DNA from: an uncultured Verrucomicrobiae bacterium
Lineage (GTDB): Bacteria; Verrucomicrobiota; Verrucomicrobiia; Limisphaerales; Palsa-1400
Reading direction: 5' to 3'
Length of the DNA stretch: 64,000 nt
Assembly (NCBI GenBank): GCA_963707025.1
Contig: CAVPOM010000014.1
Span: 224,001-288,000 of the forward strand
A model generated the notes under the pieces. The model had not been told where the DNA came from and ran no database searches. It saw nothing but the letters and a program-made list of their open reading frames with translations. Each line of letters begins with the position of its first letter. The stretch's first letter is position 1. Below, one piece after another: positions 55,041 to 61,059 of this stretch. The translations under genes and the position numbers were made by a program.

Positions 55041-55241
55041 ATGCTTAAGGCCGCCAGCTTTGAATCATTCGAGAAGGAACTGTCGCGTCTGACCGGCATG
55101 TTCGAACGCAGTCTGGCCGAGCTTACAAGTTCCGGCTACGTGGAAGCGCAACTGCGCGACGATTTTCTGAACCCTTTCTTCCGCTCGCTGGGCTGGGATT
55201 TGGAGAATAGCGCCGGACTGATTCAAACCAAGCGTGAAGTT
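55041..55241 (+). pseudogene. N-terminal 67 codons of the IS-interrupted Type IIG restriction-modification gene
   Basis: VEAQLRDDFLNPFFRSLGWD...KREV joins in frame to EIESRT at 58267. Confidence 0.85.
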
Positions 55242-55358
55242 GGTAGTGGGCTACTTTGAATTCTGGCCCCGTTGACAGCCGAACGGAAGCCGTTTTGGAT
55301 TTCCGAAAAAATCGGAAAAGCATTGCCATTTTTGGGTTGGATGATGCACGCTTTGGTT

Positions 55359-55643
55359 ATGGAAATATTCAAAGTTGCTCACCTTCAGGAGCAGGGTCAG
55401 GACATGGTGATTGTTATTGTAGGCCCGGCTTTCGCGTCCATGTCATCCGCAGACCAAGATGATGGTCGGGATGTTTTACAGGTTTGTGCCGAAAGTGCCG
55501 GTCTTGCGGGTCTTGTTGTTCCCGTGTGGCGGGAGGGAAACCGGGCTAGGTTTGTCGCGCCACTTAATTGGCATCCCTTTTTTCAATCGCTTACGTGGGA
55601 TGACATTATTCGCAATATAAATGGGGAGCTTCATTGCGGCTAA
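55359..55643 (+). CDS. Small hypothetical passenger protein
   Basis: FKVAHLQEQGQDMVIV...AGLAGLVVPVW...WHPFF; start may be 55341. Confidence 0.65.
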   Translation: MEIFKVAHLQEQGQDMVIVIVGPAFASMSSADQDDGRDVLQVCAESAGLAGLVVPVWREGNRARFVAPLNWHPFFQSLTWDDIIRNINGELHCG

Positions 55644-55831
55644 TGCCGCGGAATTGGGGGTTGCAATATCCCCCAAAACCTTGGCTTTTTCCGCCTCTGA
55701 CAGTTTGGGGATTTGCTGCTTTTTTTGTCTTTTCATAGTTTTGTTTTATGTTAAAATGGAGCCGTCTTAAAATTTAGCGTAGCGGTAAGGGTCGAGCGAA
55801 AACCTGACGACCCGGAACGGGAAAGGGCAAA

Positions 55832-56371
55832 ATGAAATGTTCCTGCATTCACTGCGAACAGCATTTGGAATTTTCCGAGGCTCAACTTGGCTTGGAAATT
55901 GAATGTCCGAATTGTGCCCAGAGAACCACCCTGTCGAGGCCACCGCGTCACGCGGGGGATCGTGGCAGTGTTGCCAGAGATCGGACTATAGAAGATGTAA
56001 TTTTCCGTCGGTCGGGACTTGCACCTCCTGCGCCCAGCCGGAGCGTGGAGGAGCAGAAGAGGGCGCCGCTCTGGTGGCTTGGGGGTGCTCCGCGTGATTC
56101 CCGCGAAGGCAGACTGTATCAGAGGATAGTGCTCTTGCTTGGGGGCGCGATGTTGATCGCCTACATGGTTTGGGGGATCGGACGTGACATCAAATATGGC
56201 CCGCTGCCGGATACGTCGTATGATCCCACCGCCATGAGGGTTAGGGAGTTGGAAGGCAATTTACGGCATGGAGACATCGAAGTGAACGGCATGAGGACCG
56301 AAACCGATGAGGAAATCCACCGTCAGGCCGTGGAGTGGCAAAAGGAGGAGGCTCATGGTGTTCACCCATGA
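55832..56371 (+). CDS. Zinc-ribbon plus single-TM passenger protein
   Basis: CIHC...CPNC and hydrophobic IVLLLGGAMLIAYMVW. Confidence 0.65.
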   Translation: MKCSCIHCEQHLEFSEAQLGLEIECPNCAQRTTLSRPPRHAGDRGSVARDRTIEDVIFRRSGLAPPAPSRSVEEQKRAPLWWLGGAPRDSREGRLYQRIVLLLGGAMLIAYMVWGIGRDIKYGPLPDTSYDPTAMRVRELEGNLRHGDIEVNGMRTETDEEIHRQAVEWQKEEAHGVHP

Positions 56372-57201
56372 TTCGTCATCAGCGCAACGATCTCCTCAAT
56401 GTCCCAAACATGGTCCGCGATCTTCGCCTCCATCGCTGGCGTCACCCTCAGAGTTTGGTGAATACGGCAAAAGTTGTAGTGCATAAAGTGGAGCGCAACT
56501 TGATGCTTGTGGTTTTCGATTTTCTTCGAAAACGCATTCGTGAGTCGGGTGAACCGGCGGGCATTCATGCGGACGGTCAAGTTCTGGCGTTCGATATGGC
56601 TGGTGGAAACAAGGTGGGTTTCCGGCTGGCCGCTGATGCACTTTTTGCGCGCCCCAATGCAGACAGGCGGCGAATACCGGGCTTCCGTGACCGGGCCGTG
56701 TTCGTTGCCGTATAGTTTTATGAGTTGAGCGTAATCAATCTCTGACCCAAAAGCCCCCTCAACGGCTTCCACGTAACATTTCAGCCCGTCTGAGGTCAAC
56801 TGGACACGGCTGGCCAGCCTTGGCGCGAGGTCGTTAATGAACTTGTAAGCGTCTGTGGCGTCCCGCTTTCCGACGTGGAAACAGGGGACTAATTTTGAGT
56901 CCGAAGCCAGCGCAATCCATGTCCATGTGTCGCCAATCCCCCCCACGCCTTTCAAATGTTCTGGCACGTTGGCTTGTTTGCACTTCGTAAACGTCCAGAC
57001 CTCATCAACCTGCAAAACCTTGCAGGGCAGGTTCACCATGACCTTATCCATGTAATCCGCGCAAGCCTCACCACCGTCAATCAGCATCCGTTCAACGGTT
57101 TTCTTGGCCGCGCCGGTGAGCCTGGACGTTGCCCGCATGGAGCAACCCTCAACGAGATGGTGGAGGATTTTCGCCCTCTTGTCTGTTGCGAGAATGTTCA
57201 T
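56362..57201 (-). CDS. IS1-family-like DDE transposase
   Basis: N-terminal HTH, LQVDEVW, LTSDG, TSHIERQNLTVR, RRFTRLTNAFSKK. Confidence 0.9.
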   Translation of the reverse strand: MNILATDKRAKILHHLVEGCSMRATSRLTGAAKKTVERMLIDGGEACADYMDKVMVNLPCKVLQVDEVWTFTKCKQANVPEHLKGVGGIGDTWTWIALASDSKLVPCFHVGKRDATDAYKFINDLAPRLASRVQLTSDGLKCYVEAVEGAFGSEIDYAQLIKLYGNEHGPVTEARYSPPVCIGARKKCISGQPETHLVSTSHIERQNLTVRMNARRFTRLTNAFSKKIENHKHQVALHFMHYNFCRIHQTLRVTPAMEAKIADHVWDIEEIVALMTNHG

Positions 57202-57277
57202 ATTTTATATTCGTTGACGGAGTGAGCGGGAAATCATTTGACCTCCGCCAAAACCTGTGGCACCTTCAAGGCGTAAA

Positions 57278-57347
57278 TGGTGGATATGGCGGGATTCAAA
57301 CCCGCGCCGACGAATTCTACTTGTCGCGGCCCTTCACAGGCATACCC
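57278..57347 (-). ncRNA. Putative 70-nt tRNA-like RNA with alanine-type acceptor stem
   Basis: GGGTATG/CATATCC-ACCA acceptor stem with G3-U70-like wobble; T-arm GCGGG-TTTGAAT-CCCGC; non-canonical D and anticodon regions. Confidence 0.6.
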
Positions 57348-57361
57348 CATCGCTTACGCCT

Positions 57362-57406
57362 ACGGCGGTCAGGTTCTCTGTCACGAGATTATCACCTGAC
57401 CGCCGT
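57362..57406. other. 13-bp perfect hairpin upstream of the tRNA-like RNA
   Basis: ACGGCGGTCAGGT (57362-57374) / ACCTGACCGCCGT (57394-57406). Confidence 0.75.
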
Positions 57407-57481
57407 TGCCCATTTATGTCGGCCCTCCACGCACGGCGTTTCTAGTTTGCGCAAGGGCTATCGGTTTAGCCTCACATGTTG

Positions 57482-57510
57482 AGTTTCGCATAGTTTGGAT
57501 TTTATGTCAA
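57482..57510 (-). promoter_or_regulatory. Putative sigma70 promoter for hairpin, tRNA-like RNA and transposase
   Basis: TTGACA-N17-GAAACT with extended TGn; flanked by ACATGT palindromes. Confidence 0.5.
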
Positions 57511-57542
57511 CCCAACATGTTAATAATCAAACACTTGCACAA

Positions 57543-57647
57543 TGCGTGACGCATATTGTTTTCTGCGTGATGCAAGTAACTTCCTGCGTGGTGCAGATTA
57601 TTTCCTGCGTGGTGCAGGTTTTCTGGTGCGTAGAGTAGATTTAACTT
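57543..57647. repeat. Five imperfect 21-bp tandem repeats
   Basis: TGCGT starts at 57543, 57564, 57585, 57606, 57627. Confidence 0.8.
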
Positions 57648-58041
57648 TTTTTGAAGATTTTTTTCGTGAGCGCCGTTTTTTCTCTCGATTTTCGCGGGCT
57701 TGCTCTGTCCAGCTTGCAGAAGCTAATTTCCGCATCCGAATCCGAATGTTCTCGCGCTTCCAATTGGGCAGGGACATTCCAATCCAGAGGCGTGTGTGAT
57801 ACGCGGTATTCTCGTTGAATAAAATTCTGGAATGCGCCTCATATGCGATCTCAATCCAATCCGACGAGGCATCACAAATTACGTCGGGTATTTTACCTTG
57901 GTAATCCCTTAAAAACATCCGATAGAACTTCGGGCGATCCTCTAGCCGCGTGGTTGGCATCGCATAAACAAGGAGGGCCTTAAAATCAATTGGCCAGACT
58001 GCTTTTTTGGGGCGGCCCACGCCATGATTCAACCCCATCAA
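57598..58041 (-). CDS. Hypothetical basic passenger protein, possibly DNA-binding
   Basis: GRPKK motif and Lys/Arg-rich C-terminus. Confidence 0.5.
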   Translation of the reverse strand: MMGLNHGVGRPKKAVWPIDFKALLVYAMPTTRLEDRPKFYRMFLRDYQGKIPDVICDASSDWIEIAYEAHSRILFNENTAYHTRLWIGMSLPNWKRENIRIRMRKLASASWTEQARENREKKRRSRKKSSKKVKSTLRTRKPAPRRK

Positions 58042-58064
58042 AGCCCGCGAGGAAAGCTCGAAAG

Positions 58065-58196
58065 TCAGCCCTTTTTCTTGGGCTTTTTGATTGGCGGGGC
58101 GATGATGGGCTTATTGCTGATGGCGATCACCTCCTGCATTACGGAGTACGCGACCTGGTTGGAGTCGCCTTTGCGCTTTTTGGCTGGTTTCATCAT
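58065..58196 (-). CDS. 43-aa basic protein beside the right IR (absent from the ORF track)
   Basis: Manual translation MMKPAKKRKGDSNQVAYSVMQEVIAISNKPIIAPPIKKPKKKG. Confidence 0.55.
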   Translation of the reverse strand: MMKPAKKRKGDSNQVAYSVMQEVIAISNKPIIAPPIKKPKKKG

Positions 58197-58266
58197 CCCG
58201 GCAGATTATCATGGAGGGGATGACGGATGGAAATCTTATTTCAAAGTAGCCCACTACCGTGAAGTT

Positions 58267-61059
58267 GAAATCGAGAGCCGCACGGAAATTGGCGGGCGGC
58301 AAAAGCGGGCCGATTATCTTTTCCGCACCGATGGTCATGACCGGTTTATTTGCGAAGCCAAGAAGCCTGCGGAGGAGTTGCACTCGGGCCAGGCTTTCCA
58401 AGCCAAACGCTATGCTTGGAACAAGAATCTGCCTCTGGCCATTCTGACCAATTTTGAGGAATTCAAAATTTACATCGTCGGCGGCAGGCCGTACATGGAG
58501 GAGCCGCTGGCCGGTCTTTGGAAAACATGGCGCTTTCGCGAACTCCCGCTGGTGGCGCAGGAGATTTGGAACCTGCTGGCCCGCGACAAAACCGCCGCCG
58601 GCAGCATTGACCAGTTGATTGAAACACTGCCAAAGACCCCTGTGGGCAAAGGCAAGGCCCGCCAGCAATGGCTCCTCAAACCCGACCCTTCCCGCGCGAT
58701 CGATGTGGAGTTTTTGAATTTTCTGGACCAAGCCAGGCGCGAACTTGGGTTCGACCTGATGCGCAATAACGACCGGGCGGACCTGCTCGAAGGCAACAAA
58801 CTCAACGAAGCGGTCCAGCACATCATGGACCGCATTCTCTTTCTCCGCATCTGCGAGGCCCGCGACATTGACACAGGAGTATTGCTGGAATCCATCGTCC
58901 AGACCTGGGAGAGGAATTACCACAAGGAAGATGCTGTTCGCGCCCACCAAAAGCCTTTGGAACCGCACGAGGAACCGCCGGCTGGTTTCGGTTATGCCGG
59001 CCTGCGCGCTGCCAAGGATTCGCTCTGGCGCGCCATCGTGCGCCATTTCCGCGCGCTGGATCGCCGCCCGCCTTCCCACGTTCCCTTCTTCAACGGCAAC
59101 CTTTTCAAGCCCCACTTTAGCGAGGAATTGGTGGTGGGTGACGGCTGGCTCGCCGGGTTCGTGGCGGATTTGAGCGACGAAGAATCGCCTTACCTTTTCA
59201 GCTACATCCCGGTCGAAATCCTCGGCACGATCTACGAGCGATTTCTTGGCAAGGTCGTCCGTCCGCAAGGACGCGGTGTGACCATCGAGGAAAAGCCCGA
59301 AGTCCGAAAGGCCGGCGGGGTTTACTACACGCCGCGCTACATCGTCGAATACATCGTGGCGCAGACGGTTGAGAAGCTTCTGCAGCACGCCAAACCGGAA
59401 GCCACACTGAAACTTCACTTCCTGGATCCCGCCTGCGGTTCGGGCAGCTTTCTTCTGCGCGTTTTCGAGGTGGTGTGCGAACACTGGCAGCAATGGCTCA
59501 CGTCCAAACCCGGCGACCGCAAAGGCAAATGGTGCTGGGTGGATGAACCAACCGGGGATGTCCACCTGACCATGGCGCTCAAGCGCCGGATTCTCGCCAG
59601 CAACGTCTTTGGGGTGGACCTGGACCCCGGCGCGGTGGAAGTGACGCAACTCTCCCTTTACCTGAAGATGCTGGAGCACGAGAACCGCAACACCCTCCAG
59701 CGCCAGCGCGAGCTACTGCCGGACGATGATGAGCCGCTTCTGCCGCCGCTGGAGAAGAACATCCAATGCGGCAACTCGCTCATTGCCTCCGATTTCTCGA
59801 TGATACCCGACGACCTCGTGCGCGTGCGCGCCTTCGACTGGAAGGTGGGGTTCAAAGACATCATGAAAGAGGGCGGCTTTGATGCAATCGTTGCGAATCC
59901 GCCTTACGGAAGGCTGCTCGACCAACCGGGTGAAGATTATGCCTCGGTTCATTTTCCCTGCTGTCAAGGTCTTCCCGATGTTTATCTGGCATTCATTGAG
60001 AGGGGTCTTGGCCTCCTCAGAATGAAGGGGCGAATGTCATTCATCGTGCCGTCGGCCTGGCTGGGCGGCCCAGCCTACCGTGCCTTGCGGGAGCGATTGC
60101 TGGAGGTTCAAGTTCAAGAGGTCATCGCGTTGCCTTTCGATGTTTTTGCGGACGCCTACATTGACACCGCCACTTTTGTCTTGAGCAAACAAGCGGCTGA
60201 TGCGAATGCAGCAGTCCGGTGCTTTGCCTTCGCCAAGAAAACAAAACTGGACTCCATTAAACTGACCGAGCGCCAATACAGTCTTGTCCCTCTGTCGGTG
60301 TGGAGAGATTCACCTGATCGGAAGTTCGTGCTGTCGGTTGGGCTGGCGAACTTGGTCTCGCGTTTATCCAGGGCATCCAAGACGCGCATTGCGGATTTTG
60401 TGGAAATGAAACGTGGAGTGTTGTTTGAGCGGAGCCTTCTGAAACCGACCAAATCGAACAAACAATCGCACCGCTACTTTGAAGGTGACGTTTATCGCTA
60501 CGACCTGAATTGGGTTGCTCCGAGTTGGGTGGAATATGGCCCGAAGATGCGGGAATGGCCCAAGCAGTTCAGATGGTTTGAAGGCGAGCGTTTATTGATG
60601 AGGCGTCTGGTGAACCGCCAGCAGCGCCTGATGACTGCTTCGGCTGAGGAAACCTTCATTACGAACAAAAACCTTTACTCCCTGCTCCTTCGCACAGAGG
60701 CGGGGCTGAAGGATGCCGGACTTGGTTTTATGCTCGGGGTATTGAATAGTCGTCTCATCTCGCGACTTTATTTGAGTCAGGTACAACAGGCAACGAAAGA
60801 CGATTTCCCGCAAGTCACCATTGCCGACGTTCTTGGTTTGCCGTGCCCTGGGCCGACAAGCAGTCTTCTGACGGAGATTTCGGAACTGGGCGGGAAGCTT
60901 TCGGCGTTGATGCCCAGGCTGCGGCAGGCGCGGAGCGATTCGGAGCGGCAGACGTTGCAGAACGCCGTCACCGCCGCCGACCAGCAAATAGACGCGCTGG
61001 TTTACAATCTCTACGGCCTGACCGAAAAGGAAATTCAACTCGTGGAAGGGAGCACATGA
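58267..61059 (+). pseudogene. Main body of Type IIG (Eco57I-like) fused restriction endonuclease / N6-adenine methyltransferase
   Basis: ADY...CEAKK nuclease motif, GVYYTP, LDPACGSGSFL, NPPY, C-terminal target-recognition region. Confidence 0.88.

Follow-up and report, generated by a model that had tools for sequence, protein, structure and literature searches.

Irregular tRNAs of the suppressor type are already known as a kind from the neighbourhood of transposons, as parts of two publications report (PMC5389517; review PMC7609411). According to passages of the former (Mukai et al. 2017), such tRNAs are charged, some of them suppress, two variants killed E. coli and the genes lie near toxin-antitoxin (TA) modules. 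A second point of comparison is the tRNA-like domain (TLD) of tmRNA, with its likewise known TLD-only forms from phage DS6A and Mallomonadaceae plastids (parts of PMC4131195 and PMC11915505). Here we describe a 70-nt tRNA-like RNA with alanine identity elements that is carried by an insertion sequence (IS) of the IS1 family in an uncultured Verrucomicrobiae bacterium (GCA_963707025.1, contig CAVPOM010000014.1, positions 224,001 to 288,000; this stretch of 64,000 nucleotides is referred to as the window). We are highly confident that the RNA belongs to a conserved family with a fold of its own and a context in such elements.

The original prediction had described a 7-bp acceptor stem with G3:U70, the discriminator A73, an encoded CCA and a 5-bp T arm, all of which are present as written (Table 1). 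It had also found neither a canonical D arm nor a canonical anticodon arm. The middle of the RNA is, however, structured: a 3-bp mini-hairpin takes the D position, and the anticodon position is taken by an arm of 7 bp that has a bulge and a loop of 10 nt. The predicted fold (-28 kcal/mol, z -2.26, with 4 of 200 shuffles equally good) is a four-way junction without a single unpaired linker nucleotide, in which these two arms meet the acceptor stem and the T arm, and which ends in A-CCA. The cloverleaf of canonical tRNA-Ala (D stem, variable loop, NGC anticodon) was not found in it. A descriptor consisting of a GGG start, the acceptor, the T arm and ACCA matched only four places in the 6.96-Mb genome, namely three host tRNA-Ala genes and the 70-nt RNA, and had no match in 100 simulated 64-kb windows. 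ARAGORN called no gene in the window, and the best Rfam match was a sub-threshold tmRNA (RF00023; 28.9 bits against a cut-off of 47) that covered the two ends only; the P1 C4 and P4 CI families were absent among the four Rfam matches (E up to 5).

Together with 25 relatives, the window copy forms a family of 26 members of 70-73 nt. Five relatives were found without a model at transposase loci (L128, L209, L037, L038 and L061, the last just outside its IS; L-numbers denote loci of relatives collected in this analysis). Two models, R1 trained on 6 sequences and R2 on 15, then yielded 20 more members genome-wide, in searches that contributed 5 (9 of 150 genomes matched), 1 (4 of 5), 3 (19 of 150), 5 (8 of 41), 3 (7 of 150), 2 (7 of 31) and 1 (3 of 121). 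Ordinary host tRNAs were excluded after reading (L348-L351, L358, L363, L382, L396, L397 and L403), the other 76-nt matches of the searches with 4 of 5 and 19 of 150 genomes matched were excluded on length and score alone, and one match was set aside because its genome was flagged as unpublished. Since only 33-150 candidates per genome were scored, the member counts are lower bounds. Standard tools mostly miss or mislabel this bacterial tRNA plan, which the family adds to those known: ARAGORN called 6 of 22 relatives, labelled by anticodon, and the best Rfam match was tmRNA in 10 of 16, always below the cut-off.

All members share a common plan, with a 7-bp acceptor stem, a mini-hairpin in place of the D arm and a single long anticodon arm that abuts the T stem, and without a variable loop. 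G3:U70 is found in 24 of the 26 members and A73 in every one. In a 15-member alignment fitted to the model, 92.9% of the cells pair; covariation reached 0.528 compared with 0.137 in shuffled alignments (0 of 500 shuffles attained it) and at most 0.143 in slid controls. Both sides had changed at acceptor pairs 4-6 and at T pairs 1-2. Stem covariation in relatives, which the original prediction had named as a check, was therefore detected. When each sequence was parsed separately, at least 4 bp abutting the T stem were obtained in 17 of 23 members, against 18% for shuffled middles.

The elbow of a tRNA is held by the contacts G18:U55 and G19:C56. In the family, the purines at the tip of the mini-hairpin are GG in 20 of 20 members with Y55-C56, GA in 3 of 3 members with U56 (the window copy, L128 and L381) and AG in 3 of 3 members with G55. 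This covariation fits the two elbow contacts, and the mini-hairpin would therefore be the D loop; the putative contact covaries in all 26 members and appears compensated in the window copy as A19:U56. Judged from these sequences, the structure is under selection, and the tertiary elbow is the best evidence for it.

Bacterial tRNA-Ala has the acceptor identity, the T arm and the G18/G19 elbow equivalent in common with the family, which differs in lacking the 8/9 connector and the variable loop, in its 2-4-bp D hairpin and in never carrying an alanine anticodon. In D-armless mitochondrial tRNA-Ser(GCU) and in tRNA-Pyl, too, a longer anticodon arm makes up for a reduced D region (parts of PMC7609411 and PMC9976931), whereas the family is bacterial and mobile, has alanine identity and variable anticodons, and shows a covarying D/T contact.

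The loop of the long arm is of the anticodon type. Y32-U33 is kept in 24 of 26 members, and a Y-U loop with a 3' purine lies at a fixed distance from the T stem in 21 of 23, compared with 28% in shuffles, as well as in 3 of 3 later finds. The anticodons were assigned as GUA (three members), CUA (five), UUA (one), UCC (three) and UCU (two), with single cases of UGU, CCU, GCU, UAC, UUC, AUC, ACG, GUG and CCA; one member is ambiguous, and some of these assignments have a second possible register. An alanine-reading anticodon occurs in 0 of the 26 members. In the window copy GUA is aligned in the anticodon columns, but it is preceded by A32 and A33, and the 7-nt loop with U33 expected of a suppressor tRNA is absent. 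Canonical GUA loops are present in the nearest transposase relatives, L209 (73%) and L383 (77%), and descent of the window copy from a GUA (Tyr-reading) member, with loss of U33, is the best explanation of its sequence. As U33 has been lost while the charging and elbow features have been kept, the window copy is probably charged and would decode weakly or not at all.

We favour, although not strongly, the explanation that the RNAs are alanine-charged missense or nonsense suppressors of mobile elements, kin to the irregular tRNAs and allo-tRNAs of Mukai et al. With the allo-tRNAs and the irregular tRNA0, tRNA1 and tRNA2 described in parts of PMC5389517, the family shares discord between identity and anticodon, stop-reading anticodons, proximity to TA genes and transposon open reading frames (ORFs), and an origin in soil bacteria; mismatch of identity and anticodon in a mobile or TA context is what we found here. 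The D-arm motif of L209 and L343 recurs in four allo-tRNA rows of that paper, one of them a 9/3 ochre tRNA with A73, which suggests that the ancestor of the family was an allo-tRNA and that its variable arm was lost. The allo-tRNAs, as presented there, have 8/4 or 9/3 folds and a long variable arm, whereas the family is 7/5, has 70-73 nt and no such arm and, unlike allo-tRNAs, lacks D-stem pairing in the canonical position. The plan is not among the 24 tRNA0 rows or the part-24 rows examined in the table of Mukai et al. (PMC5389517), and no description of it, or of IS1-borne tRNAs, was found in an open-licence library; the family is apparently undescribed.

According to this suppressor explanation, the RNA would be cut out by the normal tRNA enzymes and fold into an L shape, the loop of the mini-hairpin docking on the T loop and the single long helix standing in for the D stem plus anticodon stem. 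The host AlaRS would charge it via G3:U70 and A73; G3:U70 is the main alanine determinant and suffices for alanine identity even in tRNA-Tyr (part of PMC9976931). Members with Y32-U33 would then deliver alanine at non-alanine or stop codons, giving missense or nonsense suppression. Because alanine identity is combined with non-alanine anticodons, the cell would misread its genes. A private code, in which the tRNA repairs its own transposase, was rejected as a candidate: the Tyr codons of the window and L209 transposases lie at columns with 0-3% Ala (186 aligned proteins). Since these Tyr codons occupy conserved Tyr columns and the transposase needs no alanine insertion, we prefer a regulated effector of mistranslation, either toxin/addiction-like or stress-related, over a transposase helper as the possible benefit to the element, a purpose suggested by the TA neighbourhoods and the two lethal variants reported by Mukai et al. 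(passages of PMC5389517). This is the weakest step.

Several observations weigh against the suppressor explanation. CCA is encoded in only 7 of 26 members. RNAalifold on the model-fitted alignment predicts no lower stem, the lower helix pairs in 73% of cells, and in 3 of 15 constrained folds (L061, L355 and L360) no helix begins beside the T stem. A single event may lie behind all three U56 members, the relatives are not independent, and model training used first 6 and then 15 members, so that later matches are partly selected for G3:U70 and YU. U33 is lacking in L037 as well as in the window copy. No TA partner could be named in the element by family searches of its ORFs, and some charged irregular tRNAs are not used in translation according to part of the study by Mukai et al. 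(PMC5389517).

A more far-reaching version, which we regard as possible though rather doubtful, is that the family represents a new minimal tRNA architecture, with a perfect four-way junction, a D mini-hairpin and a single long anticodon helix, which acts on the ribosome as a programmable alanine adaptor, its anticodon being swapped by the elements to recode selected sense or stop codons and its expression being controlled by a translated hairpin leader that may sense the activity of the tRNA itself. Such an adaptor would cause mistranslation as an RNA-only effector and would provide a compact, ready-made chassis for suppressors. The natural anticodon variants on one body make the decoding question directly testable. 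Were decoding true, mobile elements could impose targeted mistranslation or stop read-through on their hosts, and the 70-nt suppressor scaffold would be of interest to tRNA engineers.

Other explanations were weighed against suppression. That the RNA is a charged decoy which does not take part in translation, its varied anticodon loops soaking up anticodon nucleases, tRNA-targeting toxins or defences to the protection of element or host, seems unlikely. Wide anticodon diversity on a fixed, cheap body would suit such a role, as would the odd loop of the window copy, the HicB-type, ArdC-like and restriction genes that occur among the neighbours of the family, and the charged G-1 tRNA1 species that did not decode in E. 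coli (part of PMC5389517). A nuclease decoy, however, needs neither G3:U70 nor A73, which are nonetheless kept, and the stop-reading anticodons (five CUA and one UUA among 26) mimic no host tRNA. It is improbable that the family is functional and the window copy merely a decaying passenger silenced by changes in its loop. Its 10-nt loop, A32/A33 and an anticodon stem shortened relative to L209, L344 and L383 could be taken for decay, and no second copy with the same loop occurs in the genomes searched; yet the acceptor, T arm, lower stem and CCA are preserved together with the compensated A19:U56 elbow, and intact terminal inverted repeats (TIRs), target-site duplication (TSD) and transposase ORF make the element look young. 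An att-site scar of a tmRNA or tRNA with a chance 5' match, which the original prediction had named among its possible refutations, deserves practically no credence. The 3' end does resemble tmRNA, but the host tmRNA, encoded on another contig, is identical at only 22 of the last 28 nt and at 35 of 70 overall, blast gave no long match to a host tRNA, the descriptor had no match in simulated windows, covarying relatives exist, and the RNA is internal to the IS with no integrase seen. Neither an att scar nor chance accounts for the 70-nt RNA, which is real.

The original prediction had further offered a control of transposase expression and a mini-tmRNA-like decoy as roles. A cis regulator in the transposase leader, in which processing or CACAGG pairing sets transposase output in the style of P4 CI and P1 C4, is about as improbable as a decaying copy. 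The predicted CCTGTG/CACAGG complementarity exists 18 nt downstream of the RNA, but it is at chance level (11% of shuffles match it, p=0.11), and 0 of the other 21 scored relatives have such a match below p=0.05; conserved loop-target complementarity as in P1 C4 and P4 CI was thus not found. The enclosing outer stem, predicted with 7 bp, has 8 bp and is reached by 0 of 500 shuffles, yet is not conserved in the family. In favour of a cis role are this stem, the gap of about 50-76 nt between the end of the tRNA-like gene and the ATG in the window copy, L001, L128, L129 and L130, the absence of a consensus promoter between RNA and ATG in the window copy, and the position of the L378 and L379 members between an HTH gene and a replication-type gene, like P4 CI. 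Against it, position and strand vary, some members being 120-400 nt away from the transposase or on its opposite strand and others in elements where no transposase was seen; most relatives have promoter-like sequence directly at the transposase ATG; and the conserved anticodon loop would be left unexplained. A TLD-only mini-tmRNA that titrates SmpB and dampens trans-translation, by analogy with the DS6A phage RNA, is less probable still. The 70-nt RNA does have G3:U70, A73, the T arm and CCA, tmRNA is its best Rfam match and that of 10 of 16 relatives, and it resembles the 3' ends of tmRNA in the TGTGAA motif and in how far this motif lies from the T arm. What we take to be the SmpB site, a D loop of about 13 nt with YCGA and a 3-nt GAC-type linker, is absent, the RNA having a 10-nt D hairpin and no linker. 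DS6A has a 13-nt D loop and 3-nt linker against a 7-12-nt D hairpin in the family, where the GAC linker occurs in 0 of 26 members, no tag frame is present and anticodon-type loops are kept in 24 of 26. The TLD also shares the lack of a canonical D stem and a helix that starts right after the D region, and the DS6A TLD inhibits tmRNA (parts of PMC4131195 and PMC11915505). On a viral contig (L311:2499-2573, minus strand), we observed a TLD-only, tmRNA-like gene of 75 nt that has G3:U70 and a GAC linker but lacks an anticodon-type loop; it seems to be a second phage-borne mini-tmRNA of the DS6A type.

Table 1. Features of the IS1-family element and its 70-nt RNA in the window.
Feature	Position	Strand	Remarks
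70-nt tRNA-like gene, short alanine-identity family	57278..57347	minus	
Acceptor 5' strand	57341..57347	minus	pairs with 57288-57282; G3:U70; A73 at 57281; CCA 57280-57278
Mini-hairpin in place of D arm	57331..57340	minus	no 8/9 connector; its GA matches T-loop U55-U56 (putative elbow contact)
Long anticodon arm, abuts T stem	57306..57330	minus	4 bp, 1-nt bulge, 3 bp, 10-nt loop
GUA in the family's anticodon register	57320-57318	minus	U33 lacking
T arm	57289..57305	minus	5 bp and 7-nt loop with U56
Leader/trailer stem around RNA, 8 bp	57269..57361	minus	57361-57354 with 57276-57269; 0/500 shuffles
Strong leader hairpin, 13-bp perfect arms	57362..57406	minus	homologous in L113, L120, L347; same type in L383, L400
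Possible 25-codon leader ORF (weak lead)	57414..57491	minus	stops just before hairpin
Single-ORF IS1-family DDE transposase, 279 aa	56362..57201	minus	PF03400 above cut-off, NF033558 below
Terminal inverted repeat, 19 bp	55242..55260		TSD at 55234-55241
Terminal inverted repeat, 19 bp	58240..58258		TSD at 58259-58266
Small basic ORF at IS end, 43 aa	58065..58196	minus	also in paralogous element; no Pfam/NCBIfam match
ORF of 147 aa upstream of RNA (uncertain), basic tail	57598..58041	minus	no family match
Passenger ORF, 179 aa	55832..56371	plus	Cys-rich N terminus, hydrophobic stretch; no family above cut-off
Passenger ORF, 123 aa	55272..55643	plus	no family match
Eco57I-type restriction-modification gene	55041..61059	plus	split by IS at 55241/58259

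The carrier is a complete element of 3,017 bp (55242-58258) with perfect 19-bp TIRs and an 8-bp TSD, so that the placement of the RNA inside an IS and upstream of the transposase, as originally proposed, is correct. It cuts the Eco57I-type gene after about codon 67 and looks young because its TIRs, TSD and transposase ORF are intact. The transposase matches Pfam DDE_Tnp_IS1 above and NCBIfam IS1 below the cut-off; an IS1-type DDE transposase, TIRs and a TSD within the 8-9 bp of the IS1 family are all present. ISfinder groups single-ORF passenger-carrying elements within that family. The window element shares with them the PF03400 transposase, TIRs beginning GGTA and the 8-bp TSD, and differs in its length of about 3 kb, in swappable cargo including tRNA-like genes and in falling below the NCBIfam IS1 cut-off. 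The closest transposases are from Verrucomicrobiota. A DNA search of 401 genomes of the class gave matches in 7, of which the only real homologs were a paralog in the same genome and L120, and an Atlas search with the 147-aa ORF gave no usable match. The paralogous element (contig C17, L113) has a transposase 81% identical and the same leader hairpin; its cargo (L113:3013-3108, minus strand) is a 96-nt irregular tRNA with five stems, in which G3:U70 and A73 go together with a UUA (ochre) loop and a bulge in the T stem, and does not follow the 70-nt plan. Three to four imperfect 21-nt repeats were noted at 57560-57640, upstream of the RNA leader, with similar repeats in the C17 paralog. Arrays of non-standard tRNA genes lie beside the housekeeping set on contigs C2, C4 and C8 of the same genome.

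To compare the cargo across related elements, we took the best 80 of 551 transposase relatives from genomes, 32 from viral contigs and the best 80 of 573 from metagenomes, together with further transposase loci from 23 of 301 genomes of the order. Among 230 loci with a transposase, 148 had both TIRs and 118 a TSD. A scan detected a tRNA-like gene in 19 of 136 distinct complete elements, and where transposase identity is 65% or more, an irregular tRNA occupies the slot in 8 of 11 complete elements (six by scan, the window copy included, L113 separately and L130 by eye). Other kinds of cargo are bodies of the His type (G-1:C73) that carry Thr anticodons, bodies of the Leu and Ser types that carry UUA or GUA, and cloverleaves of the Ala type that carry UUA or CUA; the His/Thr and Leu/UUA kinds are listed among the polycistronic irregular tRNAs in part of the supplement of PMC5389517. 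The 70-nt RNA is best explained as the occupant of a tRNA slot whose content can be swapped and which follows a hairpin leader in the IS1-family element. Passenger-carrying IS1-family elements can thereby be named as a vehicle for the irregular tRNAs of the suppressor type, the role of which has been an open question since 2017. Unusual bodies or anticodons discordant with identity were seen in the IS1-borne tRNAs of L001, L003, L006, L021, L026, L063, L103, L111, L127, L129, L130, L147, L154, L168, L169, L187, L189 and L236. In L004 and L007, respectively some 660 and 220 nt upstream of the transposase gene, a conserved long hairpin RNA of 112-116 nt with a TCCA end replaces the tRNA in the slot, and L136 seemingly has a similar stretch.

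The 20 members found genome-wide occur in varied contexts: eight with an IS1 transposase match, two with an IS1-type end only (one by eye), two flanking IS1595 transposases, four without a nameable marker, and L378, L379, L361 and L346 with phage-type, HicB or ArdC-like neighbours. L378:1501-1572 and L379:1501-1573 have a small HTH gene on one side and a helicase/primase-type ORF on the other, and the elements that carry them are satellite-like rather than IS. In L353, L360, L361 and L402 the short Ala-type RNA is the first of a two-tRNA unit, the second being an allo-type tRNA (L353, L360 and L361) or another tRNA. The sources, where named (L037, L061 and L038), are Acidobacteriota and Alphaproteobacteria. 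A viral pattern scan (105 stretches, 80 loci examined) contained no family member, the 80 loci comprising 79 tmRNA-like 3' ends and one TLD-like RNA, and a phage collection gave only short T-arm-level matches. In two DNA sequencing runs, no piece over the RNA was among the matches listed, which has no bearing on expression.

The RNA ends 76 nt before the transposase ATG and starts 14 nt after the 13-bp perfect hairpin; a strong hairpin precedes the RNA in 15 of 22 members (z <= -2, mononucleotide shuffles). No consensus promoter was called for the RNA itself. Because of the short distance to the ATG and the lack of a consensus promoter between them, co-transcription with the transposase is plausible in this copy, as in the four others with a 50-76-nt gap, and with it tRNA-type processing of the leader, which could affect the transposase message as a side effect. 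Most related transposases (L008-L110) look leaderless, with TTGACA/TATAAT-like boxes ending a few bases before the ATG; in the clade of the window's transposase such boxes are lacking or shifted. An exact 22-nt leader motif had 0 matches in metagenome contigs. Of 38 leaders, related sequences among them, 17 have an ATG at -117 to -131, compared with about 7 in other 15-nt bins. This is no more than a lead to a recurrent short ORF in the leaders of several cargo tRNAs, which would start some 125 nt before the tRNA. The leader ORF of L003 has an in-frame TAA where L127 has a sense codon, and the L003 tRNA reads UAA. The leader stop codon corresponds to the anticodon in L003, L113 and L120 but does not do so in L347 and L236.
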